From Psammoneis japonica (taxonomy: Eukaryota), in contig QPGO01000001.1 of the NCBI GenBank assembly GCA_008632985.1, positions 1,024,404 to 1,088,403 on the forward strand: DNA of 64,000 nucleotides, read 5' to 3'. Position numbers and translations under genes: made by a program. The notes beneath the pieces are model-generated. The model had not been told where the DNA came from. It saw only the letters and a program-made list of their open reading frames with translations, and did not search any database. This document shows positions 1 to 64,000 of the stretch, piece after piece. Position 1 is the first letter of the stretch, and the number at the start of each line of letters is the position of its first letter.

Positions 1-960
1 GTTGCAATGGAGTCATGATTCAGATGGCCACTGAGGCACAATCGCCACAGTTGAAATGAGTGCACAGATGTCGCTGCTCCTCTGGAAATTGCTCTGGGCT
101 TCTGCCAAAGCTGCAGCAGTCAGCTCCAAGAATTGGGTTTGAGCTGCTTTGCCAATTGTTGTGATGAACCACCCAGCAAACAACTGCAAACACTTAGAGA
201 TGTCCATTGTGCCCAGCCTTTGAGCTCTCTTGTGTGTGAAAACAGCTCGCGTCTCTGCAGCTTTGCAAGAGGAGTCATCCACAGCCATCAGAGTGACAAT
301 GAGTGCAACAACCTGCTCAGTGCAGTTGCCTGCATGGCACCTGACCACCAGGTGACTCAGGTGCAATGCCGCGCCAATGCAAAGTCAGCTCAAATTGCCA
401 AAGTCACATCTGCTGGCAAGGCCATCCAGCTCTTGCGCCACTGTGTTGCATCTGGTGCCATGAAGAAACAGCTGCACTCAAGGTCATTGAAGACAAGCAT
501 GTTTCTGCCTTGCAACACAACTTTTTCATGCACTTTCCAGCAAACCCACTCCAAATTTTGACTTGTCTCATTGACGACTGTGCAGCATTTTGTTGGTGCT
601 TTCTTGGGGTGCTTGACGCCAGCAGGCAGTGACCGAGTGCTCTCTGCCTGATGATTGTGTGATGGCTCGCAAGTTTTGCACATGTGCACATTGCTCAAGT
701 TCCATGTGGACCTCATGGCAATTGAAAAAAAGATTCATGTTTGCAAAAGCCAGCTGAGCAAACACTGCAGATGGCTTTTGTGTGTGGGCACAGCCTTGCA
801 AAACAAAAGCGCCAGACACCACCACACTCTCTCGAGGGTTTTGCCATTCAAAAGCATCAAGCTCCAGCTGCCAGGAATGGTTCAAACCACCCTTCTGATT
901 CACACCTGTGCGCACCACCACTTCTGGTCCCACACAGACCCATGCCTCCAAATCGCGAAT
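1..960. other. Degenerate TpA/CpG-depleted, TG/CA-rich block of unidentifiable origin
   Basis: Almost no TA dinucleotides; overlapping Cys/His-rich, Tyr-free ORFs in many frames; normal composition resumes at about 1000. Confidence 0.6.
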
Positions 961-1329
961 GAACTTCAAGGTCAGGCAAAATCATCCTGAATCGATCTGG
1001 GTGTGATTGACGTCACGACGGTTTTCCGCGGTTGAGTGCCATGCATTTTTATTTAACGCCTCCATTGAAGTTGACGACAGAATCCTATCCGTCCATCCGA
1101 CGAAGACATTGTGAGCTAATACAGTGGTATGTTTGCACAGGATTCCCCTGTAGAATAGTCACTGTTGGGTGTCAAGCACTGAGCCCACGCCATGGCGTGT
1201 GTATGCAGCGTTTTGACCCTTTGCACGTACCGGTGCTACTTGTACTGTGTAGGGAAGATCCAAGATCCAAGGACTTCCCGTTACTGCACACCTTCTCTTT
1301 GCGATTGATCCTTTCTTACATCAAGCATC

Positions 1330-2373
1330 ATGTTGCGTCGTGCCACGGACTACTTTACCGGTCGAGCTTCCATTGCTATTGTCAACGAAGCGCGTGGATT
1401 GCCGTATCAGATTGTCAATCTTTTATTCGCCTTCCCATGGGTTATGAATGGACTCCGTTGCTTGCTGGACTGCCATTACATTTTCCCCTACGAAGATAAC
1501 ACTGTAGCTGATTCCTTGGAGGCGGCCTTTCCGGATTGCGTCAACAATCCTTGGACTGCTTTGGCGGCAGCCTATGAAGGACACTTTTCCATCTTTCTTG
1601 CAGTGGTCCGCATCTACATGGCAACGACTGGTCATGTCGCCAACTTTTACAGCGCCATGACCTTTGTTGTCCTCGTCGATGCTTCGATTATCTTCATCAT
1701 GTTTCGTATGAAGGGTGGATGGGATCAAACGCATCGCTATGATGTGTTTGTTATTACGTGCTTGATGTACGAATTGTACGTTATGTTGGGTGCCCGTCGG
1801 GCGTATCAAAAGCGCACGAAACAAGCCAAACAAGCTGGCCTTTTTGTCTACCACCCAGCTCCCATGAAAGAAATCTCGCTTGCTTTGGCGGTGGTTTATG
1901 TGTCATTGAGCGTGCGGGCCTTATTCTTCTGCGACACTACCATTCCGGTGTTGGAAGGAGATGCCATGAAAGATATCATTCAAGGCATGTATCCGGATTG
2001 CAGGACGGAGAAATGGCAGGTAAGGCGATCTTTGTTCTCCAAAAGGTGAATTGACCCATGCTTCCTATCGTTCTCTTCTTTACACCGAAACATGCAGGAG
2101 TTTTCCAGTGGTTTTGTTGGTTTGGTCTTTTTCAATCTCAGTGCATTGGAATTGAATACTTTGCTAGCCACGGATCTTGCGAAATTATATCATGCTTCCA
2201 TCTTGACGGTCTTTAGTGCCGCGGTGCATCTTGCCATTTCCGTCCGGGCCGGCTTTACCGAGCTGCCCTTGTTTCACCAAGTCTTGCTAGTCGGAGCTCT
2301 AGTCTGGGATTCTTTTATTTTAAAAGAGTGTTTCGAAGCGAATCAAAATAGTATCAAGGCCAAGGCAGATTAG
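1330..2373 (+). CDS. Multi-pass membrane protein of unknown function, 2 exons (1330-2019, 2098-2373), about 321 aa
   Basis: ORFs 1330..2049 and 2092..2373 join in frame across a phase-0 intron 2020-2097 (CAG|GTAAGG...CATGCAG|GAG); several hydrophobic segments; Tyr/TA content normal. Confidence 0.8.
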
Positions 2374-3004
2374 AGAACGAAAAGAACTGAGGAACAGTTG
2401 AGTTGGCTTATATGTTGCGTGGTGTGGTTTTTGTTTTCTATTTCTTCATTTCTCTCTCTAATAGTCAGGCTCTCTAGAGAGAGTCGACTCAGGGTAACTA
2501 AACATAACATCAATCTTTTAAAATTATTGAATAGATTTCATTCGATATGGGATGATATAGGCCTACGGTAGCTTCGAAGTCGTCGTCATTCCATAAACAG
2601 AGATTGGGCTGATATATGGTGTGAGAATGATCTCTCAGCTAGCAAAGATGCTCGAAATAGCTTTTGGTGAGCTTTGATTGTGCACCATGATCGACCCCCG
2701 TCCAATTCTCTCAAGCTCTCTAAAGAGTCTTCTGCCGAATAAAACTCAAAATCCAGAAGAAATCAGTTTGCTATCTTAAATATTCTCTAGCTAGCTTAGG
2801 TAGTTAGATTAGGCAGCCTTTTCTGCCTTTGTTGCAGTGCATTGTAAAGCAAGGAGCACTCTGAGAGTATGTTTCCGTCAATCCATTTCTGTTTTCCGCT
2901 CCTGCGGATTGAAATCATCACGCAAGGTCATTAAAACTATTGTCAATACACAGTGATACTCTTCTTCATCCAGAAAGGTCAATCACAGCGCACCGAACTA
3001 TGTG

Positions 3005-3540
3005 TCAGTGCACAGATCTCAAAAAAAAGGTGTGGCAGAAAACAGCGAGACAGAACAGGGCGCAGAGTGGATGAAGTGCCAATGACAAGGATGCCACTGA
3101 CGATCCACCATCATCATGAAGAGAAATGATGTTCTCCGCAACTGCACGGCCACTCATGGCGGCACTGTGCGCATGTCCCCAGCCACATGCATCTCCATCA
3201 AAAGGCACAGCTTCTCCCGCAAAAAAGAGCTTGTTGTCGCCGACAGGTCTCTTCGCATTAGATCAACGGCACAGTCGCGAGAATCTCTCACCTTTGCCCA
3301 ACGATTGTAGCCCATCTGAATGTGTGGTTCCTCAACCCAGTTCTGAACAATGCAGTCGACAAGCGTTGCCGAAGCTTGTCCATCAAATATTTCATCCAAG
3401 TCTGCCAAGACGCCATCCACAACTTCCCGATCGCTGGCTTCATCGACGCATTGATCCGCAATGGCTCCATGAACAAAGAGCCCCAAGATGCTGGTGTTTG
3501 CAGTTAGTTTGGCCAAAAGTCTCATCATGGCATTCTGCAA
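3005..3540 (-). pseudogene. 3' fragment of a flavin-containing amine oxidase
   Basis: WVEEPHI...LFFAGEA...WGHAHSAAMSGRAVAE C-terminal motifs, frameshifted; homologous to 9610-10110; ends at a G-run (3540-3555). Confidence 0.75.
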
Positions 3541-3689
3541 GGGGGGGGGGGGGGGAGTTTTTCTGTTCATCATTCGTTCATGTGGTCGATCCAAACCAGT
3601 CGGGTGACCACTTCTGGGACAGCTTTGGGCGATGCAAAAGCCATTTGGTGGTGCAACAAGCGGCAATCTTTGAGTCATTTGTTTGTCAT

Positions 3690-6479
3690 TGTAGCTTGAA
3701 GCGATCGCAGTCATCTCGGAAACGAACAAAAGGGATCGTGGCAAGTGTGAGGAAAGCTAAATTCCATTGTAGGCGCAGAACTACATGCCGGCGTGAGCTG
3801 TGAGTGTCCATGGCAGCAGTTGTGTGCTCTTTGCTCCAGACCCTCCTTGCCTTCATTGCAGAATTCTGCATCAGCTGCGCACTCTTGACAACAGCACCAA
3901 CCATCATAAGAAGTGGGCCCTGGACATGCTTCACAAAACCAGAAGTCGCAGCCTTCACAAAAATGCATGCCCCCGCATTCTTCGCACAATTCTCTGTTGC
4001 AAGTCCCGCACCTCTGCATGAGACTGAAAAGGTCTAAATTGCGACTCGAACAAAATGCTTTTCACAGCCTTCACAAGAAAACCAGCCGAAGACGCACGCT
4101 TCGCAAAACTGTTTGTCGCAATTCGCACAATGTCCTACGAATCTGCACTCATCACAGTGTTTTCCCATGCAGGTGTGGCAACACTTTGCCCCTTCACTGC
4201 AAACGCTGCAATGAAGTTCCTTGCATTCACTGCAAAACGACATTGGTCCACGCCGCTCAAAGTCGTCTTCGTCAATGGCACCAACGATTGCTCGTAGCAC
4301 TTTGAAGCCTTTCATAAAAGCCGTCAATCGGGTGGTCAAACAAAGAGAGAAAGTTCTTGTTTTCATGCCACCTTTGAAACTTGACAACTTTCAGTCCAAT
4401 GACGACACCCGGATGAGGCGTGAGGTTGGTGTTGATTGGGGGCACACTCTTCAGCACCGCAATCACAAAGGAGTTGTCAAGACCTGTTTGGCCACAACGC
4501 TCAATGTAGCTCCTCTTTCAAAGATCAATCTCTTCCAGGCGACGCGAGTGCTGCAGGTGTGCGCCCTGTGCACTTGTGGAGCCCGACGAGGAGGGTTCGG
4601 CCCCACCGAACCCGACGAGAAGGGTCCAAGCAACGAGGTGGAGACCGACGAGGCGGGTTGCACAATGGCGAGAACGACCCCAGCGAGGAGGGTGGACGAC
4701 GAGGAGGGCTCACATGTGTGTTCATCACAGCACCTGAAGCCGTTGTTACGATCGAAATTTAAAAAAACGTTGGTGGGATTGATTCAAATCCACCACGTAG
4801 AATTGTGCATGCTGGCACAGTTTGACGGCAGAATCCTCGTAGTCCACAGAGAGACAGCAAGTTTCTGCTTACACCCCTTCTGCACGATTTTTATGCTGAC
4901 GTACACTTGTGCACATTTTGCACCGAGAAATTCTGTGCGACTCCAAACGGTGCGCGGTCGGGTTGATGGCTCATAATTTTTCCGAGCGGCCGATCGACAA
5001 CCACCGCTCCCTCCGACAATGGCGCTTTTGGCCGATTTGACCGGTGCGACACCGCCTCCCGACCCCTGCCTTGCTTGACAGTGTTGCAAGCCATTGGGTC
5101 GTGCCATGTGAGTGAGTCCTGGCTCTAGAATGGGTCAGAATGACTCAAAATGTGGTGAGTTCTGATTCTCGTGGAATCATGCGTCTTTTTCCCCGTTCTC
5201 GTTCGCAATGGCGCTCACCTTGAACCTCCTTGTCCCGCATCTTGATGTGTGGGAATCGAAGATGGGGATGTCTAAGTCCACGGGTCTGCGCCATCGCCGT
5301 CACCATTTTTGGCTCCGTCGCCATTCCACGCCGTTCCGCCGCGGCACTTCTTCTCTCCCCGGTCCATGCCGCACCACCATGGCACTGCCTCCGTTCTCCA
5401 AGCTTCTGCCATGATTTGCATGGACCGGACCAGTCACTCGATCCCAAGCTCCGACTTTCTACCATTGCTCATGCCGATTTGCTGCCTGCTTTTGTCGTCC
5501 TGCTCCGTGGAACCACCAGACTGCCTCTCTTCCATCTGTCCTCCCTGCCCGCCGTTGACGATCCAGGCACCCCAAGTTTTGACCCCACTGGTGAGTTTAC
5601 ATTGGTCGTTTGCTCATTGTTGCTTTGTGTTTGTAGAAAAGCATGTTCTCACCTCCTTGTGTTGTTCCATTTCACCACAGATGTGGTCATTTTTCAGGCG
5701 CTGGTGCCGTGCTTCTCTGTGCAAGTTTTTGTGCACACCAATGTTGTCTTGCTTTGTTCTTTTTATTGAAGATGTGGCACCAACTCAAACAGATCTTTTC
5801 TCTCTTTTGCGCCCTCTTGCAACATCGTTGGATTGCTGTCTTTGCATCTCTCTCCGGCACTTGCATCATTGTCGGTCTCTTCGCTCGTGCTTCGCTCGCG
5901 TCGTCTCTTCTCCACGCTCGCTTCCCCTGTCAATTGTACGCACGTAATTTCTACATAAATGCCTCATGTGCAGAGCACCAAAATGCTGCCAAATTACATG
6001 GCAACGGCCGTTGACGGTTTTTAGAATTACTTGGGGCCACCCACACTCGAGCAGTGGGAGTCCATTGGAGCTGCTAGTCCACGGCCTCGAACCGAGGTAC
6101 AGCCCATAAGTGAGAGGGAACTCGTCACGTTTTGAGCGTCGACATTCTTGAGCAAGTTGAAGAGATTGGCGTCAGTGATTTTACTCGCATTTCGTACACC
6201 CCCAAAACCAATCTTGGCCCATGCACTGGGGCATTCTCGGTGCACCAAGTGTCTCAGCCAAGACGAACACGCCGCAAGCCGCACGTTTGATTCAAGGTCG
6301 AGAAACGATGCAACCATGCGTGAAACCACCGTTGGAAGCAGACGAAGCGCGCATCGTTCCGCCATCATGGGTTCTAAAATGCCATGTGGGGGGCTCGCGT
6401 CGACAACAGCACCCGCCATGGTTGCGGCACTCGAGTGTTGAATGTCAGCCGTCATTGTGGCTGTGCCGGCATTGAGCAT
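3690..6479 (-). pseudogene. F-box-like gene with Cys-rich (CxxC) C-terminus, interrupted by a 1.5-kb insertion
   Basis: N-part LLPTVVSRMVASFLDLESNVRLAACSSWLRHLV (F-box-like) ...SLMGCTSVRGRGLAA continues as LQHSRRLEEIDL*KRSY after removing 4557-6068; CxxC repeats at 3710-4250; in-frame TGA and frameshifts. Confidence 0.6.
4557..6068. mobile_element. Unclassified insertion of about 1.5 kb splitting the F-box-like gene
   Basis: Reading frame of the flanking gene is restored when it is removed; no convincing TIR or TSD seen. Confidence 0.45.
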
Positions 6480-8029
6480 GTAGGGCCCTACGGCACGGTG
6501 AGGTTATGTGCTGAATGACGAATCTTTCAGGCGCACGTTTGCATCGCATTCCACGTACAAAGACACAGCGTGACTTTTGGCGCGAGGGAGTGGTCCTCCC
6601 GTCGTCCGTTTCAGGAATGCAGCTGGAAAGTTTGCCATGGTGGCAAAGTTTGTTGGGTGCAAAGGGATGGGGAAAGCCAACACATCTGTCATTGCCTTTC
6701 AGAGGCATTGGCAAATGCCTCTGTAAACTCTCACAACCATGGCAAAATGTGGGGGACAGGTCCCTCCGCTGTTTTCCAACACACTCTCTCCTTTCTTTTC
6801 TTTTTCTGCCTTGCCCACAACGCAAACCTTTCTCACAAATCTTGCCAGATCAAAGGGCGCCCAATTGGCGCTGGAGCATTTGCCAGTTGAAGCCAACTCT
6901 GCCATGGCTTGTCCACATGAAGTCACTCATGCTGTTGGGATTTCACGGCTCACCAACTGTGATCTGCTCTTGTCTCGTGCGCCGACTCCCAAACTCGCCG
7001 TGTGTGGAGGATCCCAAGCACATTTCCAGTGCTGCCAGCACTGCCATTTGCCATGTCAACTGGGTGCAAAAACTAAAAAAGTGAGAGCAAGACCCATCTT
7101 TTGGTGGGAGTTGTGAACACAAACTCTTGCCATGTCCTCAACAGCCATCATCATGTCATCTGCGCTGCGGCGCCAAAAAGCCACCTCACACCCTGATGTT
7201 CCAACACATTCCTTCACACAAGGGGTCAATTGATTGGCCGCCCGCCTTGTCTGTGCTGATCCAAGGAGGGTGGCATCTCTTGCTTGGGTGATGATGGAGC
7301 AGAGCCGAGCTTCAGCTGTCTCATCCTCGGTTGCTGTCAGACCAATCTCCTTGAGCAAAAACTTTCTCATGCCACCATCATTTGGTGTTTGTGTTTTCCA
7401 GCCTTTTTGTTGCTGCCGGCTTCAACACAGTGGGTGCCGGAAATCAGGCCAGTGGTGGGCATGCAGAGAATTGGCACAAATGTGCATCTCGAAATGGACG
7501 ATTGCAAGGGTGTGTTGATGAGGGTCCATTTTGCCCTCTTGATGTCGTCATTGGCTCCAACGGGTTTTTGACAAGTCCTCTGTGTTGTCACTGCGGTGAT
7601 GGTCTGCACACTCACCCAGAGTGTGCCTGCCATGCCAGTTTGATGTTGCTCAAGGCCTGGGTCTCACAGCTGCTTTGGAGGCTGCAAGCACCACCTGGGG
7701 AGCTGTGGCAATCTCATTCTTTTCTTTCATCAATGCTGTGCTGCACATTGATGAGTCAAAAGCAAGTTTTTGCTTGCAGCCCATGCCGCCCACCGTCTGC
7801 AGCTCTCCAGCAAGAGCTCCAATTCTGGGTTCCTGCTGAGGGCTGCTGGAGTTGCAAGCCCCAGCCAAGGTCTGGTGCTCATGGCTTGTGCCACAACCAA
7901 CCAAAGTGCTCAGTCAGGAACATCAGCCACCAGAGAAGTGCAGAGCCAGAGAATGACAGATGGCAATGAACCAGCAATTGTGTGTGGAATGCAGCCAGAT
8001 GATTTTCCATCAAATGCTCTGCTTCCTTC

Positions 8030-8240
8030 CACCATTCCATCATGTGACCAATTTTCATTCTGGGTGCAGTTGTGTGCAAGTCCCAACAAGTGCACTGCAC
8101 CTTGTGAGTGACACGCTGCACCTGTTTTTTCTTCATTGGATGCAAGATGCAGCAATGCAAGAGTTGCTGAATTTGGCATGGAAGGCACCAGCAGCAGTGG
8201 CTGGATGGCAAAGTGGGGGAACTGTGACTCTGCTCAAACA
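8030..8240. repeat. Dispersed degenerate repeat, second copy at about 13150-13340
   Basis: agtcccaacaagtgcactgcaccttgtgagtgacacgctgca vs agtcccagcaagtgtgctgcaccttgcgagtgacatgctgca. Confidence 0.7.
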
Positions 8241-8619
8241 CACAGAAATGCTCATCTTGCACCACACTTCTGCACCAGCATGTGAGTTCAAAGATGTTGG
8301 CAAGTGGATTTGACAAAAGGCGCCACAAGATTGGACATGTTGGTGATGCAAACAGTGGCCACAGCTTTTGACACTCAGCGTTGGCACGCCAGATGTTTTT
8401 TTTTTCTGAGAAAGTCCCATGTTCTCATGTGCAGCATGGTGTGGCATGCAGAATGAGGCTCTGAGGCAAAAATGTGATCACAGGTCTCTGCATGACTTCA
8501 GCGCCAGGGAGCTGTTTGCACATTGTCACATGTGGCCAGCTCAAGACTTGGAGCAACTCTGGGCATCAGAAGATTTGTCATTGCAGTCATTCAGAGTTGT
8601 CTGTTGCGCCACTCTGCTT

Positions 8620-10110
8620 TCCAGCATGTTGGAATTGAGCACTTTCCTGGCCATGGATCTTGCAAAATTATGTCATCATGCCTCCATCTTGACCATCTTT
8701 AGTTCCATGGTGCATCTTGCCATTCCCGTTTGGGCTGGCTTTGCCGAGCTGCCCTTGTTTCTCCAAGGCTTGCTTGTTGGAGCTCCAGAGTCTAAGATTC
8801 TTTCATTTTTTAAATGAATGTTTCGAAGTGCATCAAAATGGCATTGAGGCCAAGGCTGATTAGAGAACAACAAGAGCTGATGAACAGTTGAGTGGGCTTG
8901 TGTGTTGCATGATGTGATTTTTGTTTTCAGTTTCTTCATTTGTCTCTCTGATGATCAGGCTCTCTAGAGAGTCAACTCAGCATGAATGAACACGACATTG
9001 CATTGAACAGGAGCAGATCCTCTCGGGAGGGGATGATTTCAAGAAGCCCAGAAACAGAGACTGGGCTGATGCATCTCTCAGCTGGCAAAGATGCTCGCAA
9101 TGGCTGTTGATGAGTTTCAGCTTTGTGGACAATGATCTCAGCTCAACTGCAGTGTAAACCGAGAGGACCACAGTCCAAATCTCCCAATCTGTCTATGGAG
9201 TTTTCTGATGAATGGAACTCAAAATCCAGAAGAAATCAGTCTGCCATCTGCTGCACTCTCTAGCTGGGTGTTTAGATTTGCCGACGACTCATGGCTCTCT
9301 TGAGTCTCAATGTGTGCAAATTGTGCACTCCGACGGAGGTGAGGCAAGCCATTCTGCGTTTGCTGCAGTGCAAAGCAAGGAGCACTGTGACAGCATGCTT
9401 TCGCCAAACCGTTTTCGTTTGCCACTGCTGTGGACTGAAATCATCACTCTGGGTGATCAAATCTACTGTCAATTCACACCAATGCTCTTCTTCATGCTGG
9501 AATCATCACTCTGGGTGATTGAATCTGCTGTCAATTCACAGTGATGCTCTTCTTCATCCAGAAAGGCCAATCACAGGGCATTTTAAATTTATGTGTCAGT
9601 GCACGGATCTCAAAAGAGATGAAAAACAGCGAGGTAGACCAGGGCACAGAGTGGATGCAGTGCCAATGACAATGATGCATCTGACGATCCATCATCTTCC
9701 TGAAGTGCAATGATGCTCTCCGCAACCGCACGGCCGCTCATGGCAGCACTGTGCGCATGTCCCCAGCCATGTGCATCTCCATCAAAAGGCATGGCTTCTC
9801 CCGCAAAAAAGAGCTTGTTGCCGCCAACAGGTCTTCGCATTGCATCAATGGCACAGTCACGAGAAGCTCCCTCCTTTGCCCAACGAGCACAAGCCGTCTC
9901 AATGTACGGTTCCTTGTGCCAGTTCTGAACAACGCAATCGACAAGCTTTTCCGAAGCTTGTCCATCAAACATTTCATCCAAGTCTTCCAATGCGCCATCC
10001 ACAACTTCCTGATCGCTGGATGCATTGACATGTTGATCCGCGATGGCTCCACAAACAAAGAGCCCCAAGATGCTGGTGTTTGAATTTTGGCCAAATGTCT
10101 TGTCACAGTG
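8620..10110 (+). repeat. Degenerate segmental duplicate of about 2140-3530 (exon 2 and 3' region of the membrane gene, intergenic DNA, amine oxidase 3' end)
   Basis: LELSTFLAMDLAKLCHHASILTIFS vs LELNTLLATDLAKLYHASILTVFS; collinear UTR/intergenic matches such as ggctctctagagag and aactcaaaatccagaagaaatcagt. Confidence 0.85.
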
Positions 10111-10820
10111 TAGCCTGTTGCCAAAAGCACTCGACGACAGGTCTTCCGCGTCGAATTCAACACAGTCACGTTCAATCACAAGCGCCAAAGGATAAAACGT
10201 GTCTGTAAATTTGCAGAACACCTTGATCCCAGGGCCATTTCACAGTCATCAATGGCCTGGGCATGACTTTTGGGCAAGTCTGGAACAAAGGAAATGGCCT
10301 TGTTTTGCAGCATTTGCATGGATGCCATCACAATGACACGCGACGCCTGAAGCGAGTCTCCGTTTTCGCATGTGGCTTTCACGGGCATGATGCTGTAGTC
10401 TGCTTGCATCACGGGACAGTCGAGAGTGATGTCTTCTGGATTCAAAGTCGACGCTAGTTGGTCATTGAGAAAGTCCCACCAGGTTGAATTGATCCACTTG
10501 CAGTCGTTTCCCGATGGTGTAGATTCAGCATAAATCAAAGAACCACCCCATGTGGATGCCTCCGACACGTCGTGCTTTGCTGCAGAAATGGTGCTTGCGA
10601 CATCTCGATCCACAATGGGATTCAAAATGGATGCTGGATCACCGTGAATCCACGCTCCACCGACATCAAGGGGAAAATCAGCCAAGGTGTCGACTTTTTT
10701 CAGCCGACCGCCGATGCGATCCGACGCCTCGAGGATCGCATGGGAAAGACCCGCTCGTTCCAAGCAGTTGGCCGCTGTCAAACCAGCCGCACCCGCTCCA
10801 ACAACAAGAACGTTCGTCAT
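9610..10820 (-). pseudogene. Flavin-containing amine oxidase (MAO/PAO family), near full length, frameshifted
   Basis: MTNVLVVGAGAAGLTAA (GxGxxG), LEASDRIGGRL, DVGGAWIHG, LFFAGEA motifs; split between ORFs 10176..10952 and 9610..10221. Confidence 0.85.
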
Positions 10821-11749
10821 GTTCAGCACCGCAATTGTGAAGGGCAGGGCCCCACTGTTGTGCCGGCAGAAGTTTGGTGTCGACTGATGACGAATGCACC
10901 TGATCACGACTGAACACGTCATCTGATGCGTCATCATTGCAAGACTCAGCACGTCATTTCCGAACCCCCAGTGATGTGGAACAAGTCTGCGTCACCAACT
11001 GCACTCCACTTTCGCACTCGCATTTCAATGCTTGCTGAGAATTTGTTGTGATCTTGTCATTTTGAACAGACATTTTGACCTTGTTGCAGTTTCAGGTGTC
11101 ATGATGTTTGCCTTTTTTCATGACATCATTCATGCAGTGGACAGGTGAAAAATGATGTGGAGAGAAAAGCATGGTGTGGGGGGGCACACACACTTGTTTG
11201 TCGCCATTGTGGCTGCTTTTTTGCAGGTCAGACAGCTTCAAAAAGGTTTGATCAAAGATGTTGCAGAGCAAACAGTGGGTGCAATGCAGCAAGCCCAGAA
11301 AGATCAAGCTTGCTGAGGAGAGGCTGTGGCGGCAATGCTGCTTTGGTGGGGGGGTCCTCCACTCCCCCCTCAAGCAAGCAGAAAAGGCGATGGGAGCAAG
11401 CCACCAAGTTGTTGGCTGCAGCTTTCACAGTGGTGGTGCAGAAAAAAACAACAACCTGGCCAAATTTCCATCAGGAACATCATGGCAGGCAGACCAGCAA
11501 GCATGAGAGGCTGCCCTTTCCCAGCACCAAGCACCGCCACAAATGCCAAAGCAAAAGTCAGCTCTGCTTTCTAGATCAGCAGGGGTGATGGCCATGGGTG
11601 AAGCCTTTCCATGCAGCAGCATTGCGGAGGCTTTGCAGCTTGATTTGGTGGCTGAGCTTTCTTCTCAGCAAAAGCAAAGGTTCAAAAAGTGGCACATGTT
11701 TCTGTTTCCTTCAATGCTGGCATGGGCAAGGACCTGCTGAAGGTCAATG

Positions 11750-13473: not shown

Positions 13474-13530
13474 AAGAAGAAGAAGAAGAAGAAGAAGAAG
13501 AACAGGAAGCAGAGCAAGAAGAAGAAGAAA
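13474..13530. repeat. (GAA)n microsatellite
   Basis: aagaagaagaag... run with a second shorter run. Confidence 0.9.
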
Positions 13531-50808: not shown

Positions 50809-50809
50809 G

Positions 50810-53800: not shown

Positions 53801-55100
53801 CACAACCTTTTTTCTATCGGCAGAGCCAGTGGCTCGCTCTCAACTCTCAATGGCGCAAAGCGAAGAAGAGAGCAGAAGCTTTGGTCTTCCATTTCTAAAG
53901 GCAACACATCCAAGAATTGTGGTGGCATTGTTGAATTGTTGACTAGAATGGTTGTCATCGACAGAGTTTAAAAATGCAGCATTGTTGCATTTGCGACACC
54001 CAACACCGATCGAACATTGTCCTCTTGTGGCATTGCAGTGCTGCACCCTGCAACTCCTTGCTGTCAACATTGGGCTAAAGATTTCACAAAATTTCTTTCA
54101 TCAGAGAGGGAACCTCTGCAGCATCCGAAGAGAAACATCAAAGACAGATGCGTTCCAGCTCTGGGTGGGACCTCGCAGCACTGAACTGTGACATCAACAG
54201 TTTTTTGGATCACGCCGCATGTCGCGCACGTAGATGGCTACGTGTGACATTCTACAAAATTGTTTCATGCTTCCTATTTTGCGAAGCCAAAGGCTTTCTA
54301 TTTTCAACATTTGTGACAATGAAAATGCGCTGGGCACATTCTTTAATGTCTGCAGAACACACCCATGCAAACTGTCATTCATGTGCTGCAAGTGTGAAGG
54401 AGGAGATACGTTCGTAAAATTGCCTCTTTTTCTGTTGGCGATTGTGTGCATTTAAATTGATTCACAATTTTAATGCAAAGCTCGCACGCAGAATTCTATG
54501 GGCCCAATGTCACATGGAGTCCCACCTGGGATTGGAACCCGTCGACACCTTTTGTGCATCCAGCTTTCATCTGACTTTTGTCTTCTGGTTTTGCTTCCCA
54601 TTTCTCAGATTCTCATGAGCAGATGCCATGCTTGCCTCTACATGTTCAAGTGCAAAATGGCTTGCAGTCACATCATTGATTTATCAACAGCACTCAACTC
54701 AGCAATCATTTGCAACCCGCAGCCGGCAAAAAGGGTGGTGAAACAATCACACACGAAGCAACCTCCTGAAGGAGTCTCCAACTGGTCCACTGCCAACTTT
54801 TTGCACCTGCATCCAATGAACCGATTGTCCCGGGAATGGTGTGATTGAATTGAGCTTTCATCAGCAAGTCACGACAACAGTGCAACGTTTCCCTTGTGAC
54901 ACTGGCAAGAGGAAACCCACGATGCTTTTTTGACTTGGACCTCATCTTCAATGCAGTTGCTTCGATCAAAGCCACATCACCTGTCACACATGCAGGTCTA
55001 ATTGACCGCACTGCATGATCGCAGTGACAGAAAGTGCGGCAAAGGGTGGCGCCATCATCGCAAACTGCTGATGGTGTTTCACTCATTGTGCCTCGTGTTG
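50810..55100 (-). other. Degenerate TA-depleted coding relic, probably transposon-derived, not classifiable
   Basis: Fragmentary protein-like minus-strand ORFs with no recognisable motif; hairpin-rich right flank. Confidence 0.35.
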
Positions 55101-56006
55101 TTTAGTGAAAGGCGCGGATGACGCGTCGGAGGGAGTTTCTGTAGAATTCTGCGTGGACTGGCACAAGCGTTCAATGAATGGAAATTTTCCTTTCAGCACG
55201 CGATAACCCTGCTTGTCCCTGCTTAGCCCCTGAGGCGCGCAGAGAGCCTCAGGGGCATTCTGATGCCCCTGAGGCCTCTCAGGAGCCTCAGGGGCAGCTG
55301 CGCATGAGGCTGCGCATTTTGCACCAGACAAATCAGCGCACAACTCTGGCGTTGTTTCGCCGCAGGCATGTTGCGATCCCAGAAGAAATTCACACACAAA
55401 ATTCTTGATGCAGCAACAAACACACACAAGATGTTGCGAAACACTTCTTGGAGCATGCAGCTGCATTAAATTCTACGTGTTTGCACCAGGAAAATGTGCC
55501 TCCAACCCATCCGGCAGGCGTGAGCAACATTTTGTGTGTGAGAAAGAGTTCGTTGGGGCAGGCGAACAACATCACTCTACGATGCGACTGGTACAAAATC
55601 TACGTAAATGCACAGACACGCTCTGGAGCATGTCTGTGCAAATTCGAGTTCGTAAATAATAAGCAGGGATAAAGCACCTTTACGCGAGTTTTTGCCAACA
55701 AGTGTTCAGCAATTTGTAGTAACATCCGGGTTTTACACACATTTTCACACGACTGAAACGCGACCAGAAAGCCCACGTCACAATTTCAAATTTCTGCCCT
55801 GACTCACCACTCGAACTCACCAGCCCGGGTCTCGGGTCTCCCGATGCCACTGCCTCCATTTGCATTAAATCGAAGCGTATTGTGCGAAGGGTGCACCCCA
55901 CTACTGTAGAGAAAAGCAGTCTGTGCAAATCCATATTTCCGACGATAAGGTTGTCACTTGATTCTAACCCGCTTTACCGGCATTCAAACACGACCCATTT
56001 CCAAGA

Positions 56007-57535
56007 ATGAAGACAACACTCGTTGCGGCGGGATATTTTCTCGTCATAACGGCAGCTTCCGCTTTCCAGGCTTCGTCTCCTGCCGCCTTTCGTGCTGCAT
56101 CTCGTCATGATTCCGCTCCTAAACTGTTTTCCACCATATCGACGGTTCTCGACATTACGGAAAACGCTCAGCGGGACACATACACCATGGAGGAATGGGC
56201 CAGAAACTTCGGCGTGCAAACTTCGGATGGCTTTGAGATCACCACGAACGATGGAGAGGACTACAGCGTCATGACAACGCAGGATGTTGCCGCTGGAAGT
56301 CCCGTACTTTACGTACCTGCCCAGATGATTCTATCATCAGAAAGCGTCGCAGAGGAATATGGATATGTTCTACAGGAAGCCGAGGAGAAACTTGTCAAGG
56401 GTGGCCTGGGAACCCATCTACCGCTTTTTCGTCTGTTTTTCAAAATCCTGGTCGAGTACGATTTAAGGGATCAGTCGCCTTACTTTCCATGGCTAAACTC
56501 GTTGCCGAGGCGGTAAGAAAAGTAGCTGTGCAGCGCTTTGCCCCATGTTTCTGTATTAAGATGGATGTTGCTAACCTGACGTTTCGGTCCCAATATCTTC
56601 TTTCACTTCAGATTCTACAACGGAGCCTCCATGACATACAAGTGTTTCGAATGTCTCCCTCCCTATGTTGCGTGGCTCTCCATGAAGGAGCGCGACAACT
56701 TTTTCAACTTCTACAAGGCGTTGAAATCTATCCCCTCCGGAGTTCTCAGCGAAGCGTCGATGATATCGTCCGATCGTCAAAAGTGGGCATACAATATTGC
56801 GCTTACGCGGTCTACTGTGCTTGCCAATGGAGAACGCAGAATCGCTCCAATGGCTGATATGGTATGTGTCTCAATAGCGTCATCCTAGCTGCCAGGTGTA
56901 TTCATCGTCTTTGAACAAAAAACTTACACGACGCCTTGCTCGTTACTCTTGTTTAGTTTAACCACGGAGCAGAGCCTGAGGTGGAACTCCAATATGACGA
57001 GGAGGGACAATGCATGGCTTACGCCACAAAAGATATCGCAGCGGGATCCCCACTTAGGATATCTCTCGGTGACCCCACAAACCCTTCTCCTCTGTTTGCA
57101 ACCTATGGATTTCTCGATGATTCGTCTCCCGGAGTGTTCAGCAAGCTAATGCATTTGCAGAAAGAAATGAAGGATTTGAACTATGAATTTAGCGATTTAC
57201 TTTTTTACGACAATGGCGAGATTTCACCCGCGAATTGGGATGTTATCTTGTACAGATTACTCGCTGGGGATGAGAATCTACCGGGGTTCTACGATGCGTG
57301 CATTAATGGCGACGAGGAGACGAAGAATAGCTATCACGAACACTATTTTCCGTACACGTTGGAGGCGATGAAAGAACATGTGGACAAAACTCTTGCAAAC
57401 GTCGAGTCTTTATCGGCAAAGGCGAGGACGATGGACGTATACAACCATCCTCGGGTCCCGGTCATATTGCAGCACAATGATTTTGTCATGAATACCTTCT
57501 ACAAGGTCAAGGCAAATCTCGACGCCATGGGCTAG
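56007..57535 (+). CDS. Plastid-targeted SET-domain protein lysine methyltransferase (LSMT/SETD3-like), exons 56007-56512, 56612-56861, 56957-57535
   Basis: Signal peptide with ASAF motif; SPYFPWLNSLP, WAYNIALTRS, PMADM|FNH, LFATYGF SET motifs; two GT-AG introns keep the frame. Confidence 0.9.
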
Positions 57536-57951
57536 ACAAGACTAGCTAACCATTTTTGAATTTCGCTGTCTCATTATTCCGTAGAGCTATTTATTCCATA
57601 ATGCTTTGATAATTTAGCCGGACGCTTTGCACCCATTTTACGTAATGATGCCCGGAATTCCATACCCGTCCCTTACCTTGAAGAACAAGTCGTGGCACAC
57701 TCGTGGCACACTCGTGGCAAGATTACAATACGCGACCAATCCCTATATAAAAAATGTCGTCACGCATCCACGTCACCGCACCCGCGCTCCGTTTCCAGTT
57801 TCGAAAAATTGGGACGGGTGGTGGGTGGTCCGCAACCTGACTGTTCGTTGGGCTCGTCCACATCATCGATGTGATTGCGTCGGTGTCACGCTATCTCTCC
57901 CTATTAGTCGCCTATCGACAAGATCTGAAATTCGACCCAAGCGGAAGCAAA

Positions 57952-59486
57952 ATGACTGTCTTTCCTGTTTTGACGGCGACTTTTCTCTTCATAGCGGCGT
58001 CTTCGGCTTTCCATGCGTCATCTCCTGCAGCCTGTCACACAAAGTCTCGTCATGTTTCAGTTTCTCCCTCTGGTCTACCTTATCGGCGGTCGACATTACC
58101 GACAATGCTCAAAGAGATATTTACACAATGGAGGAATGGGCCAGGAACTACGGTGTACAAACTTCTGATGGCTTCGAGATCACCACCAACGATGGGGAGG
58201 ATTACTTCGTCATGACAACACAGGATGTTGCCGCTGGTAGTCCCGTGCTTTTCGTTCCCTCTGAAATGATTCTTTCTTCTGAGATGGCCGCAGAGGAACT
58301 TGGCGGTGTGCTCCAACCTGCGGAGGAGAGGCTTGTCAAGGGTGGCATGGGAGACCAGCTGCCACTTTTTCGTCTGTTTGTCAAGATTTTGGTCGAGTAT
58401 GAATTTGGTGATCAGTCTCCTTATTATCCCTGGCTAAACTCTCTGCCAAGACGGTAAGCACTTACTGCTGAACTCTGTGTTGCAATTCTCGAATTTGTAT
58501 GATTGGCGAACATCCTGCTAACTACATCTATCGGGTCGAACTTGTTCACACATTAGTTATTACAATGGAGCGTCGATGACATACAAATGCTTCGATTGCC
58601 TCCCTCCCTACGTGGCATGGCTCTCGATGAAGGAGCGAAGCAACTTTTTCAATTTCTTCAAGGCTCTCAAATCTGCACGTCCTGATATACTCAGCAAAGA
58701 AACAATTTTTTCATCGGATCTTCAAAAGTGGGCTTACAACGTGGCACTCACGCGGTCCACTGTGCTTGCCAATGGAGAACGCAGAATCGCTCCCATGGCT
58801 GATATGGTATAAACTTCTCAACACCGGCATGCCTTGCTGCAATGCGTAATTGTCTTCCTTAGTATTAGTAGTGCGCAAAACTCAAACTCGCTTTTTGGTT
58901 TGTATAGTTTAACCACGGTGCTGAGCCTGAGGTGGAACTCCAATATGACGAGGACGGACAGTGCATGGCTTACGCCACAAAAGATGTCCCAGCCGGATCT
59001 CCGCTTAGGATATCGCTCGGGGATCCCACAAACCCCTCTCCTCTGTTTGCAACCTACGGCTTTCTAGATGATTCGTCTCCCGGAGTGTTCAGTAAGCTCA
59101 TGCATTTACAGAAAGAAATGAAGGATTTGAATTATGAATTTAGTGATTTGCTCTTTTACGACAATGGCGAGATTTCACCGGCGAATTGGGATGTCATGTT
59201 GTACAGATTACTCGCTGGAGATGAGAACCTGCCGGGGTTCTATGATGCGTGCATCAATGGTGACGAAGAGACGAAAAATAGCTATCACGAACACTACTTC
59301 CCCGTCACGCTAGAAGCGATGAAAGATCATGTGGACAATACTCTCGCCGACGTCGAATCGTTGTCCGCACAGGCGAGGACCATGGACGTATCACAGCATC
59401 CCCGCGTCCCCGTGATTTTGCAGCACAATGATTTTGTCATGAATACATTTTACAAGGTGAAGGCAAACCTCGACGCCATGGGCTAG
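57952..59486 (+). CDS. Tandem paralog of the SET-domain gene (exons 57952-58453, 58557-58806, 58908-59486), apparent frameshift near 58068
   Basis: Same intron positions and motifs; SSAF presequence in one frame and mature protein in another; Tyr/TA intact. Confidence 0.75.
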
Positions 59487-60444
59487 AGATGTCGTTATGG
59501 TCAGCGGGATCCGGGGGTAGGAAGCAAGCTCTGAAGCCACAGTTTACATCTAGATGAAAGAGAAATCTGTACTACTGCTTTTGCTACTACTGCTGCTGCC
59601 TTGCTCTTCCTGCCATGCAATTCATTCCCTTTTGTCTCGACATTGTCGAAGATTCAGCCACACCCGGGCCCGGATGGCTGCACTCTCAGCAATGAAAAAT
59701 CCGAAAAATGCATTCCCGCCACATGCCGCACCAGGGCCTGTTGGTGTTGCCACTAGCTCCTTTGCGAGGAGCAAAAAGCCACTGGTCGGACACACAGCAA
59801 TCGTGAAACAAACGAGTTTTATCCACAACCTCCAATGTTTGAATGCACTTTGTTGCGTGGCTTTTTGAATGGGCGTCATTGCTTACATCATTTTTTTGGA
59901 TGCTTGTTTTGATTCACAATCTACATGGCCCCAAGACAGATTGAGAATCTGAGCACTCTTTGACAAGCTGGCTGCTGCACCACAACAAGAAAACAAGAAA
60001 TCTGTCTTGCAGCAGCACCACACACACTCTCTCTTTTTTTGGCTGGCAGGGTCCAACACAAATTAATGAGCTGCTCACCCACACCAAACAAAATCAAGAG
60101 TGCCAACACAAACACAGCATGGAACCATGTGTTGGTGATGAGGAAAAAAAACAGTTGTGGCAAAAGCACGCCATTTGAAGGGCAATCATTTGCAACATTC
60201 ATGATGGTGTCATTTGATGGGGGAGCATTCACAACAGTCATGGTTTCAGTCTCGCACCAGCCAGCACAAAAGTCACTTTGCCCAAGTTTTGTGACAAAAC
60301 TGCTGGAACAAGCATCTGTCCAAATCAAGGTTGTCTTGGGAACATGTGCGGGAGTGGAGACAAAGGTCATGAATGATTGCAGGCAAATTGCAGGCACGAC
60401 CATGATTCTCCTGACAGCACTGCCAAGATGACCAAAGAAGCAGA

Positions 60445-62565
60445 TGTGCGCTGTGATCGAAGAACGAGTGTAAACGAAAGTAGAACAGAGTGCGAAAAGT
60501 GGAAATTATGAGATTGAATTTCACTCTGTGATTTTTGGTTTCTCCGAATGAGTTCTCAATGGCCCAAAGCTTCTGCACTGCTTCTGCAGACAAAAAGGCC
60601 TTTCAGAGAACATGACCGTGACAACAGACAGTCCAGGTGCGATTGGCATTGACACACAAGATGTCAGCACCGTCTGTTGATCGCATTTGAGATTTTCGAC
60701 TTCCAATCAACTCTGTGTGATCATTCTGTCCTTCGCACGCATCCACGACTGTGGCACGATTGACGTGGAAACATCATGTCACAGTCGCATGCTGCACTCG
60801 CCTGCCCAATTGCACATTGGAGTCATTTGTTAAGTGGATCATTCGATGAACATTGACAGCGTCAATGATGTCTCCACGTTCACTGCATTGTGCCATTGGT
60901 GATGACTGTTGTTGTTTTGCATGGGCCACACAGGGCCGTTCCAATTTCCGAATGTCTTTTGAGAGTGACATCGTTTGTTTCTCACTTGGCATGCACACAC
61001 ATGGCACTGCGTCGAGTGTTCTCATTGACATTCTTTGTTGATGTGAACACAAGGACCAACTGTCCTGCAGTGTCTTTCATGATGTCGATTGCACACAGCA
61101 TCATGCCCAGTGCTCAATGTGCACTCACAATTGTGGCATTCTTTGTTCGAAGAACTCGCTTTGAGCATTTTTTGAACTGCTCAGAGACTGCCACAGCATT
61201 CAACTCTTCTTTGCGAGTGGCATCATCGTCATTGCGACACGACCACATGCGATTGCCATTTGAACGGCACCGTTTTGGATCACATTCATTCTGTCCACAG
61301 CGTTCATTTGCTGGTTCATTTTCAAAACAGCTTCAACCCATGATGCAGGCATTCTTTTTTCAAAGATTGGACATTTTGTTCACTTTGGATTGTTCTGGCA
61401 CCATGTGGGAGACCATTTTAGGAACCAAATTTGGAGCCATTTTGGTTTTGGAATCAACTTTGCTGTCAGAGCTTGATTTGCTGCACTCTTTTGTCACAGG
61501 CATCATCGCTGACCTCTGGACAACTCAAACCTCAATCAGCTCATCAAGGGTGTGATCCAATGGCTTGGTGTTTTGGACAGTGAACTGATGCTGCCATCCT
61601 TGTGGTGCAAGTGACACCTGATGTCTCAGTGCTTGGTTTCCCACTGGATTTGACCCAGAATCGATTTGAGGGTCATGTGGATGCTCGTCATTGACCTCTT
61701 GGGTCCAACAGAGACTTTCTTGCTGTCAAGCTGCTCTGGTTTCTTCAGATTGTCTCAAAAATAACATTTCTGATTCTGAAGTGCATTTCTTTGGAAGACA
61801 TGAGTTGAGAGACACTTGGGGCACTTTTCAACGGTTCCTTCTTGCTCTTTGGACTCAAGGCTTGTTGATTCGGTCTCAAAAAACTCTCCAATGGTCTCTC
61901 CTTGCACAGCAGATGCATTTCTTGGACCTGATTGACTCGGGACTTGCACTCTCTGCAACCATGACTTGGTGCAGATTTTTTGACAATGCTGCATGCTTGT
62001 AGAGTCCTTGATCCTCAGGTGCTTGGAGTGAATCACATTGGAACAAATCTTCTCATTTGGCAGACAAAAAATGGTGTTCCATCTTGAGGCACTGCTCGGA
62101 CTGAGCTTCTTCCACTTGGAAATCAATTCCAGCAGAACTGATGCAATTTGTTCCTGTTCATGGAAGAATGTGCAAAGGCACATTGGTTGAAACTTTCACT
62201 TTCTACATTTTTGCCTTCTGTGATGTGTGTGCACAATGCACCATGCTCAAAGAACAAGTGCAAACGAAAGCAGAACGGAGTGCAAAAAGTGGAAATTGTG
62301 AGAATGAATTTTGCTCTGTGATTTTTGGTTTCTCCGAACAAGTTCTCAATGGCCTGAAGCTTCTGCGCTGCCCCCACAGACAAAAGGCCTTTTGGAGAAT
62401 CTGATTGTGACAACAGATGGTCCGAACGCAATTGGCATTGACGCGTGAGATGTCAGCATCATCTGTTGATCACATTTGAAATTTTTGACTTCCGATCAAC
62501 TCTGTGTGATTGTTCTGTCCTTTGCATGCATCCACGACTGCGGCACACTTGACACACAAACAATG
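60445..62565. repeat. Pair of degenerate direct repeats of about 330 bp (about 60445-60775 and 62240-62565) within a TA-depleted block
   Basis: gtgtaaacgaaagtagaacagagtgcg...ttatgag vs gtgcaaacgaaagcagaacggagtgca...ttgtgag. Confidence 0.75.
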
Positions 62566-62866
62566 ATGTGCAATCATGTGTGTGCATGCAACAGCCACAT
62601 GCTGCAGATGCTGCAGTGATCTCTGTGCCCTTGGTCATGCACAGCTGAATGGTGGTCTTGACAGCTCAGCTCAGCTCCCCATGGAATGTGCTGAGAGTCC
62701 CAGCATTGTTTGGAAAAAGTCAGAGAATGATGAGGTTGGCAGAGCTGCACACTTTTGTGAGCTCACTGCTGGTTTTTGCACTTGACTTCATCTGGTGTTT
62801 CTGTCTTGCAGCCTCCCTTCTTTGCCTTTCTTTTTGTGCTCAGCAGAAGCCCACCCTCATCCAGAT

Positions 62867-63349
62867 TGCAACACACAGCTGCTGACAAGAGCCAGTGTAT
62901 CACGGCGACGTGTCACAGCCTTTAAATGTCACAAAGGGTGTGACAAAAACAACCTTTTGTCTGCATGCATGCTGCATTGTGAATTCACAGCGGAGTGGTT
63001 CATCGCAACCATCAGGCAGGAGGCCAGGGGTTCGAAACCCTGAGTGGGAGTTGTCTGCAGCAACGTTGATCACTGTCGAACGGGTAAAACTCTGTGCAGT
63101 TCTGTGTGTTCCTTCGCACGCACCCACACTGTTCCACCAAAACCGTGCAGTGTCAGTGCACGTCAGTAAAGAGCCGCATGGATGTGCGACACATGGGGAG
63201 GAGTGCAGTGTGCAGCTGCCAATGAGAGCCAATGAATCACGGCGACGTGTCACAGCCTTTAAATGTCACAAAGGGCGTGACAAAAACAACCTTTTGTCTG
63301 CATGCAAAGGGCATGACAAAAACAACCTTTTGTCTGCATGCATGCTGCA
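62867..63349 (+). mobile_element. TRIM-like miniature LTR element (LTRs 62867-62976 and 63204-63349)
   Basis: 110-bp TG...CA direct repeats (second has an internal 36-bp duplication); PPT ggggaggag before the second LTR; 4-bp TSD AGAT. Confidence 0.7.
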
Positions 63350-64000
63350 AGATGCCACAATTTGAATTTGCAGCATTGGCAGCTCTGACTGCATTCCCAA
63401 GGAGGTGATGTGCAATTGGGTGCTTTTTCTGGAAATGTTTGATGCCAAGGAAAAACCCATGATGTGGCAGATGAAGTGGTGAGCCAGACAGAGTCCAGGC
63501 ACACATGAGACCATGTCTGCTGGATGCCGCACAACACATGGGCCATGCTCCAGGATGTGAGGGTGTGCACCCAGCAGCATGGCACACACACACACACACA
63601 TGAGCACAGAGGAGCACAGCTGCTGCTGGGAAGCAGTGTGTGTTGAAACATTGGGCGAGAGATGGCTTTTGAGGACAAACAGACAATGTTGCAGTCAACA
63701 AAACACTGATGACTGTTGAGAATGTGGCAAATTTGTGCTTGCAACTCCTGATGAATTTTGTTCTTGCTCCCACTTTTCAGTTTCTGCACCTGGTTGACAC
63801 AGCAAATGGCCATGACAGCATCAGAAAAGTGTGCTGTGATCCCCACATGGTGAGTTCAGGGACCGGTGAGACTGGAGTGGATTGTTCAGCAAGCCATGAA
63901 AACAGAAGACAAAAAGTGTCAAGGCAGACATGGCATGACACTCAAAAAAGTGGCATCAATCGAAGGTTGAGAAACAGTCTCTGGAGGACATTGCTGCAAG

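Follow-up and report, generated by a model that had tools for sequence, protein, structure and literature searches.

Probable TpA-directed hypermutation of silenced repeats, with genes spared, in a 64-kb window of contig QPGO01000001.1

The stretch of DNA analysed here, which we call the window, comprises 64,000 nucleotides of contig QPGO01000001.1 (Psammoneis japonica, assembly GCA_008632985.1, positions 1,024,404 to 1,088,403 of the forward strand), and in it ordinary genes alternate with repeat and pseudogene DNA that is depleted of the dinucleotide TpA (hereafter TA) and makes up about 70% of the whole. The loss, which affects Copia retrotransposons, a tandem array, duplicated amine-oxidase gene segments and unannotated repeats, is probably the outcome of a regionally targeted hypermutation of TpA to TpG or CpA that acts on the DNA of silenced repeats and spares genes. 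Block borders were determined with a two-state hidden Markov model (HMM) of TA versus TG/CA steps, complemented by a scan in 1-kb windows. Depleted blocks were thereby assigned to 3-1044, 3001-5935, 6197-15305, 17521-21842, 22246-25905 and 26802-34464 in the first half of the window and to 43364-45459, 45959-48104, 48604-55573 and 59591-63997 in the second, with small spared patches inside them and with sharp boundaries where genes adjoin, and these positions agree within about 100 bases with those in a first-pass annotation made from the letters alone. Pooled, the depleted blocks (45,486 bp) hold 324 TA, with observed/expected ratios (o/e) of 0.12 for TA, 0.55 for CG, 1.58 for TG and 1.66 for CA, as compared to 756 TA in 16,877 bp of gene-like DNA, where the corresponding ratios are 0.63, 0.95, 1.18 and 1.19. 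Internal control DNA consisted of the gene island at 34467-41893 together with 1050-2999, 15310-17518 and 55578-59588. The most extreme tract is 43660-45490, for which the first-pass annotation had reported no TA and in which we count none over 1,831 bases, although its base composition would lead one to expect 101.7. The TA depletion of the repeat blocks is thus confirmed as a real observation.

The first of the larger depleted domains, 3001-15305, has a TA o/e of 0.17 in 3001-5935 and of 0.08 in 6197-15305, on either side of a spared patch at 5937-6195, and within it or at its edge lie three degenerate amine-oxidase gene segments recognized by Pfam and blastx (2910-3522, and 9613-10991 and 11753-12982 on the minus strand). 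The Copia cluster, likewise on the minus strand, consists of an RVT_2 fragment at 18990-20258, equivalent to residues ~1261-1683 of full-length relatives; a polyprotein copy at 20586-25569 (copy A), matched by blastx in two segments covering residues 1-710 and 720-1683; and a further copy at 26854-31537 (copy B), which is 96.5% identical to 22170-26852 and has a blastx match over 26854-30255. Neither the fragment nor copy A contains a stop codon. Copy A has a TA o/e of 0.14-0.18 at a CG o/e of 0.74-0.95, its region includes spared patches at 21846-22228 and 25907-26791, and repeats resembling long terminal repeats (LTRs) occur in the cluster at 18659, 20255 and 31771. Repeat comparison coupled with the HMM identified three tandem units of 2,645 bp, 99.7% identical, at 42874-50808, each of which is composed of about 2.1 kb with 0-3 TA and a CG o/e of 0.11-0.13 and of an AT-rich patch of 0.46 kb in which TA is normal (42910-43360, 45492-45954 and 48137-48599). 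The remaining blocks carry no annotation: a repeat-like one at 3-1044, defined by the HMM and the 1-kb table (TA o/e 0.02, CG o/e 0.34); a TA- and CpG-depleted one at 31538-34464, which includes the LTR-like repeat 31771-32070 and whose 1-kb windows over 32001-34000 have a TA o/e of 0-0.05 and a CG o/e of 0.08-0.25; a second of this kind at 50809-55573, the remainder of HMM segment 48604-55573 (TA o/e 0.11, CG o/e 0.36); and one at 59591-63997 (TA o/e 0.06, CG o/e 0.39). A scan of 125 of the 181 open frames of at least 110 amino acids, which are spread over all six frames of the window and lie mostly within TA-free blocks, yielded Pfam matches inside the blocks to Copia and amine oxidase only, while an Rfam search of the window gave no match.

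The direction of the change was established for the Copia elements by means of an outgroup of 23 homologues of at least 1,300 amino acids, drawn from 120 listed relatives (~61-70% identity) with P0001, P0002 and shorter proteins excluded. At columns where this outgroup has a conserved tyrosine, the four Copia segments of the window, pooled, read histidine or cysteine in 29 of 52 cases (13 His, 16 Cys) and another residue in six, as compared to changes at 64 of 1,031 conserved columns of other kinds (Fisher p ~1e-19); the RVT_2 fragment accounts for His or Cys at 10 of its 14 such columns and copy A for 13 of 27. The composition of the Copia frames points the same way, as they have just 0.4-1.6% Tyr alongside raised His (4.3-6.5%) and Cys (2.1-3.8%). 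Polarisation of codon changes at conserved columns, by single-step inference, returned 24 TA>TG and 13 TA>CA changes with none in reverse, 8 CG>CA, 7 CG>TG, 6 other A>G/T>C and no other G>A/C>T, in addition to 22 transversions, 17 unresolved and 2 ambiguous cases; no TA-creating change was seen among these polarised changes at conserved Copia columns. The two motif changes from which that annotation had argued are exact: KALYGL at 21780-21797 reads KALHGL at 20184-20201, and ETATYGSEF at 20898-20924 reads ETATCGSEF at 19302-19328, all on the minus strand, and among the 120 listed homologues KALYGL occurs in 105 and ETATYGSEF in 96 while the altered forms occur in none. One and the same Tyr codon is also seen to have become CAY in a first copy and TGY in a second. 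Together with the TG-opposite-CA differences described below, the evidence from these outside proteins supports, and in our judgement settles, a loss running from TA to TG/CA, as the first-pass annotation had proposed.

For the amine-oxidase segments, homologues were collected by a PDB search and by a search of 1.84 billion representatives, and the best 30 of the 150 listed were aligned. The copies at 9613-10991 and 11753-12982 differ at one site as His versus Cys where the best solved homologue, like one third of the relatives, has Tyr; this may be an example of one TAY codon resolved both ways, and a CGY ancestor is also possible.

The timing of the loss was assessed from the Copia pair 22170-26852 and 26854-31537, compared over 4.7 kb. 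Transitions make up 146 of its 158 substitutions, of which 43 are TA versus TG/CA, 56 lie inside 28 dinucleotides with TG opposite CA, 35 are CG versus TG/CA and 24 fall elsewhere. A TG opposite CA implies an ancestral TA (or, rarely here, CG) that was hit independently in each copy, with one transition per lineage, and such dinucleotides account for 28 of the 31 that differ at both positions, as compared to 3 of 87 in a control pair of tandem paralogous genes (56036-57536 and 57981-59487, 79% identical, unremarkable in TA and CpG, and with transitions as 141 of 310 substitutions). TA-derived substitutions accordingly total 99 of 158, so that the earlier statement that copies differ mostly by TA versus TG or CA holds once the double hits are counted (43 + 56) and does not hold for the 43 alone. 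On the assumption that parallel hits with the same outcome were as frequent as those with different outcomes, about 129 TA would have been present when the copies separated, where the o/e of gene-like DNA would give 139, and since then 47% would have been lost from one copy and ~74% from copy B. The corresponding per-base rate, which is inferred from the comparison of copies and is not a per-generation measurement, is ~100-200 times background divergence at TpA and ~8 times at CpG, as compared to 1-2 times in the control gene pair. The near-normal TA content at separation and this rate indicate that most of the loss came after the copies had separated, and separately in each. The losses are patchy and tract-like in their distribution: 24 of the 39 TAs kept solely in copy A fall in 25770-26669, and the losses of copy B cluster opposite.

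The tandem units suggest that the process is recent or still active. These 99.7% identical units differ by nine substitutions, five of which are TA versus TG/CA and two CG versus TG, and those of the TA type are all confined to the 0.46-kb patch in which TA persists.

In our reading, which we regard as likely, A:T>G:C transitions that may fall on either strand change TpA within silenced repeat DNA into TpG or CpA; the targets are Copia LTR retrotransposons, the tandem array, duplicated host-gene fragments and the unannotated repeats, and the process would be enzymatic. As to the agent, a candidate suggested in the first-pass annotation, a TadA/ADAT-like adenine deaminase acting on DNA, is still the best available, and it may have gained slightly from the bases that follow the converted A. 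For tRNA A34 deaminases the context U33-A34 does not vary, and UACG is the site on which TadA naturally acts. Within one TA the converted A is followed by C in 37 cases as compared to 14 for the sister A (p 0.0018), the counts for converted and sister A being 9 and 15 where A follows, 18 and 31 for G, and 9 and 13 for T, which points tentatively to a preference for TAC. An ADAT2/3- or TadA-like enzyme would be favoured because the T-A step corresponds to the U33-A34 context and because TAC resembles UACG, and we rate this identification as plausible, at a little below an even chance. No deaminase domain was found among the 125 of 181 window frames of at least 110 amino acids that were scanned. 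That the process serves as a defence seems to us evenly balanced between yes and no.

Among the alternatives, the one that survives best, unlikely as we consider it, places the lesion on the thymine, in that a JBP/TET-like hydroxylase would oxidise the T of TpA in silent chromatin to 5-hydroxymethyl- or 5-formyluracil, and mispairing of the product with G would lead to T>C, seen as TA>CA on one strand and as TA>TG on the other. 5-Formyluracil is indeed mutagenic towards T>C and the hydroxymethyluracil of dinoflagellates is enriched at TpA, both of which count for this route; the symmetry between strands fits any lesion of double-stranded DNA, and our di- and trinucleotide data fit a change of G-T-A to G-C-A equally well. 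Against this, a U-A context is intrinsic to the A34 deaminases. An ADAT2 homologue is also the sole published candidate for the signature in the available text of the one preprint that describes it (10.64898/2026.01.13.699255).

The same U-A context recalls RNA editing, since ADARs typically prefer a U on the 5′ side (10.64898/2026.01.13.699255, available text), and the best-characterised targets in the window are Copia elements, whose transcripts might undergo ADAR- or ADAT-like A-to-I editing that is then fixed by reverse transcription. Such a route would mark one strand, whereas here the two DNA strands share the changes about equally: TG and CA occur in balanced numbers in 8 of 10 depleted segments, the conserved Copia Tyr columns show 16 changes to Cys and 13 to His, and the polarised sense-strand changes include both TA>TG and TA>CA, in the numbers given above. 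Moreover, DNA outside retroelements is affected. In the amine-oxidase duplicates, which were also near-normal in TA content at separation, TG/CA accounts for 21 of 68 double differences; the pair 2146-2792 and 8629-9265 differs by 22 changes from TA to TG/CA against one in reverse; the 2,645-bp array is likewise affected, and near-identical units of this one locus differ at TA sites. Editing of retrotransposon RNA is therefore very unlikely, and the evidence supports a process that would act at the level of DNA, on both strands and on non-retroelement sequence too, in line with the first-pass annotation.

CpG decay constitutes a second process, superimposed and slower. The older blocks have a CG o/e of 0.03-0.25 on top of their TA loss, while the Copia elements, at a GC content of 53-58%, have lost most of their TA at a CG o/e of 0.74-0.95, and in the young Copia pair the CpG process is ~10-25 times slower per base than that at TpA. 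No 1-kb window, those straddling a border excepted, is poor in CpG but normal in TA. The CG>TG/CA changes are polarised through R>C, R>H and T>M replacements in the Copia proteins, and they would be the usual outcome of cytosine methylation of repeats, the methylation of transposon CpGs being documented in diatoms (PMC9998398, in the text available). Old blocks thus end without TA and without CG, such that every pyrimidine-purine step reads TG or CA. The coincidence of TA and CpG loss in many blocks might suggest a common cause, namely patch repair by an error-prone polymerase of the eta type, which would be set off by T:G mismatches arising from deamination of 5-methylcytosine (5mC) and would introduce WA>WG changes. 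Polymerase eta is indeed known for A>G changes at WA. However, of the 87 isolated transitions in the Copia pair, defined as those with both neighbours identical in the two copies (the other 59 transitions, in which a neighbour also differs, being left out), 42 occurred at the ~99 T[A/G] sites, 34 at C[A/G], 6 at G[A/G] and only 5 at the ~930 A[A/G] sites, so that ApA is spared, and the high CG o/e of Copia blocks that had already lost most TA indicates that the TA loss need not await CpG deamination. The polymerase eta candidate of the first-pass annotation is thus very improbable, to the same degree as RNA editing.

It might still be asked whether the bases are right, as modified bases of heterochromatin could have been miscalled, TA as TG or CA, and carried into the assembly. 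Contigs of exact 31-mers from sequencing run X1, at the word depth of 51-56 characteristic of unique DNA, differ from the window at one letter over the TA-free block 32019-34438 and at none over the neighbouring genes, 34575-41938, and because raw noisy long reads are unable to yield such contigs, miscalling by long reads is very unlikely. The changes are also coherent with evolution, as seen in CAY and TGY for one Tyr codon, in block-wise grades of depletion and in the superimposed decay of CpG. The protein P0093, a Copia relative from a 10.4-kb public contig, has His or Cys at 9 of 21 conserved Tyr positions, a replacement seen at no more than two positions in any of the other 119 homologues, and the TpA-loss signature thus seems, from this protein, to be present in at least one other public contig. 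What speaks for an artefact is that the stretch occurs in the sequencing runs of a single sample, that of run X1, with no RNA run among those listed for it, that this run is possibly the assembly's own source and that its platform is not on record; on balance we regard an artefact as highly improbable, even more so than the two preceding alternatives.

Least probable of the readings to which we give any weight at all is that the composition is native or maintained by selection, be it functional avoidance of TA or descent from a TA-poor donor, since, mild under-representation of TpA in most genomes notwithstanding (the genes here have an o/e of 0.63), the depletion is equal in the three codon phases of the Copia frames and in non-coding DNA, has replaced conserved Tyr of catalytic motifs, arose from a near-normal TA content at copy separation (~129 as compared to 139), and is absent from a distant Copia relative. 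The latter, L001, is a 2,352-bp metagenome contig and the sole locus with the Copia protein (49% identity) in a metagenome scan, and because it shows CpG decay (CG o/e 0.24) without TpA loss (TA o/e 0.60) the TpA signature is not a general trait of Copia. GC-biased gene conversion was ruled out, as ApA, GpA and ApT sites are unaffected.

Several points weigh against the interpretation of TpA hypermutation by an enzyme and should be set beside the evidence for it, the dependence of base verification on the one sample X1 being among them. The four Copia segments share ancestry, so that the 52 pooled Tyr columns are not independent events. A majority rule over three copies from the window points, on its face, the other way, for example with seven TG/CA>TA and no TA>TG/CA changes for the copy at 3039-3526; this rule was dropped as a method, as in our reading parallel loss at saturated hotspots inverts its result. 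Polarisation through the amine-oxidase protein, with homologues of at most 54% identity, points in no clear direction, the three conserved Tyr columns having been kept in one case and replaced by Asn or Leu in two. The pooled contexts of residual TA rank TAT, and not TAC, as the most depleted. Finally, an enzyme as agent is an inference drawn from the sequence of this window alone, and because TA is palindromic a damaged A is indistinguishable in the sequence from a damaged T opposite.

The regional confinement of the hypermutation is seen best in the DNA that it leaves alone. The gene island at 34467-41893 (TA o/e 0.67, CG o/e 0.89) encodes a sulfatase (34870-36912, minus strand), whose best protein match, in a collection drawn in part from NCBI, UniRef and JGI, has 45% identity and which in an Atlas search matched bacterial clusters only, and a LamG/WW protein (37616-41200, plus strand). 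Together with a PDZ protein and two paralogues without known family these are the ordinary genes of the window, which form long uninterrupted frames with a TA o/e of 0.62-0.68 and 3.2-4.1% Tyr, and for them the statement of the first-pass annotation that adjacent genes are normal in TA and Tyr is borne out. It does not extend to the ankyrin-repeat gene that adjoins the tandem array on the minus strand (41902-42906, also given as 41789-42706), in which an intermediate TA o/e of 0.25 and 1.6% Tyr may represent spill-over of the hypermutation or just the plain composition of ankyrin repeats. As regards targeting, the earlier description of the process as repeat-targeted and RIP-like (after repeat-induced point mutation, RIP, of fungi) goes further than the data. 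A trigger by duplication would agree with the near-normal TA content at which the Copia and the amine-oxidase copies separated and with the present hits in the TA-bearing patch of the amplified array; on the other side, 2146-2792, which lies in normal DNA, keeps 41 TA and its duplicate 8629-9265 keeps 9, and the main target in Bigelowiella natans is single-copy (10.64898/2026.01.13.699255, available text). Nor has duplication alone attracted the mutator to the paralogues at 56036-57536 and 57981-59487.

Two further observations concern the abundance of these repeats. The short contigs of run X1 over the 2,645-bp tandem family have a word depth of 575-900 as compared to 51-56 for unique DNA, which indicates that the family is multi-copy in the genome, and the 0.46-kb patch of its units matches DNA immediately upstream of the ankyrin gene. 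Over 31600-32030, which spans the LTR-like repeat 31771-32070, the summed word depth of run X1 is ~196,000 as compared to ~51 in unique DNA; this segment is either a hugely abundant repeat or a low-complexity portion of one.

A peculiarity of the proposed process is that it never makes a stop codon, because TA is never created and TAA and TAG are destroyed. The four Copia segments have no stop in 3,210 codons, and the many long stop-free frames of the window are explained by TGA being the sole stop left in TA-free blocks. Open frames are consequently no sign of selection here. Proteins would be disabled by missense, with His or Cys taking the place of Tyr and with cross-codon effects, for instance Val for Ile, and long open frames would be left in all six phases. 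Hypermutated elements that stay open give rise to spurious long frames which mislead gene prediction and the dating of transposons, and if the process were a widespread defence, genes would be killed without stops and protein databases filled with open but dead frames. As handles on the mechanism the window offers the possible TAC preference and defined TA-bearing patches that would be expected to mutate next.

The first-pass annotation knew of no description of such a process; however, the signature has been published. In mutation-accumulation lines of the chlorarachniophyte B. natans, Mettrop et al. (bioRxiv, 2026, 10.64898/2026.01.13.699255; the statements on this system rest on the available text of the preprint) describe A:T>G:C hypermutation at TpA only, with 231 of 302 nuclear point mutations in integrated giant-virus and virophage regions, a rate per site and generation of ~6e-7, and TpA as the site of every GC-biased mutation. 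In B. natans, reverse-transcriptase and DDE domains are over-represented among TpA-depleted coding sequences; the authors propose an ADAT2 homologue as the agent and cite reports that ADAT2 edits DNA in amphioxus and in Trypanosoma (10.64898/2026.01.13.699255). Our full-text literature searches found no second description of TpA loss in repeats; a Rhizoctonia paper that shares terms with it concerns ordinary RIP indices, and a mutation-accumulation paper on Phaeodactylum tricornutum reports, in its available text, a GC>AT bias under a coverage cap that excludes repeats. The two systems share the restriction to TpA, which becomes TpG or CpA according to strand, a regional action orders of magnitude above background, and low TpA with high CpA plus TpG. 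The signature seen here is the same as that measured in B. natans, in what is probably another lineage, given the long uninterrupted frames of the genes and the 45% identity of the best match to the sulfatase, which speaks against B. natans or any annotated model genome. A weak lead to diatoms comes from the Copia protein, whose closest Atlas cluster names Bacillariophyta and has one member of known phylum. It may be that TpA hypermutation is an ancient and widespread defence chemistry of the stramenopile-alveolate-rhizarian group (SAR), as exemplified by a stramenopile, probably a diatom, and the rhizarian B. natans, and possibly of organisms beyond it. In the present organism it would then be what chiefly inactivates LTR retrotransposons, satellites and duplicated host DNA, would begin once a sequence is duplicated or heterochromatic, and would depend on a DNA-acting adenine deaminase of the ADAT/TadA type that prefers T-A-C, a proposal that we advance tentatively as a whole and to which we give clearly less than an even chance.

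The differences from B. natans are equally instructive, again within the available text of the preprint (10.64898/2026.01.13.699255). In that alga a de novo rate was obtained from two viral insertions, of which one is single-copy, whereas here the estimate comes from a comparison of copies, and the DNA attacked here consists of LTR retrotransposons, a tandem array and duplicated fragments of host genes instead of viral insertions. Saturation has been reached here, with no TA in 1.8 kb, as compared to a Rho TpA of 0.45 still found in the nucleocytoplasmic large DNA virus (NCLDV) region of B. natans, and 29 of the 64 one-kb windows fall within both cut-offs used for B. natans, as compared to 124 clusters in its 95-Mb genome. 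Among the 158 substitutions of the young Copia pair, CpG-type (35) and other (24) changes accompany the TpA class, as the long-term record mixes two processes; for a process of the B. natans type, nearly exclusive A:T>G:C transitions in the affected region would be the criterion. The CpG decay superimposed here has no counterpart in the available text, which makes no mention of CpG or of diatoms. New over the preprint are the saturated end-states, in the form of kilobase blocks without TA and without CG, the clear action on transposons and duplicated host DNA, and the comparison of copies, which puts the loss after their separation.

Among the better known systems, ADAR hyper-editing and the TadA-family ADAT2/3 enzymes share with the process inferred here the conversion of A to I, read as G, and a 5′ U or T, and TAC resembles the UACG of TadA; these enzymes act on RNA, whereas here both DNA strands and DNA without RNA passage are changed. 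Deamination of 5mC in methylated transposons is present as the second component and is unable to remove TpA. RIP in Neurospora and other fungi likewise produces context-dependent transitions at the DNA level in dinucleotides, ruins repeats including non-transposon duplicates, is patchy and may spill over, but it is opposite in its chemistry, as it converts C to T at CpA and thereby creates TpA and stops, whereas here A is converted to G at TpA, TpA is destroyed and no stops arise. A test for the RIP signature failed accordingly (TA o/e 0.12, CA and TG enriched, no polarised other G>A/C>T), and the earlier assertion that neither RIP nor 5mC decay explains the TpA loss is upheld. If the window comes from a lineage other than that of B. 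natans, TpA hypermutation would represent a broader eukaryotic means of degrading unwanted DNA, with a chemistry opposite to that of RIP and APOBEC.

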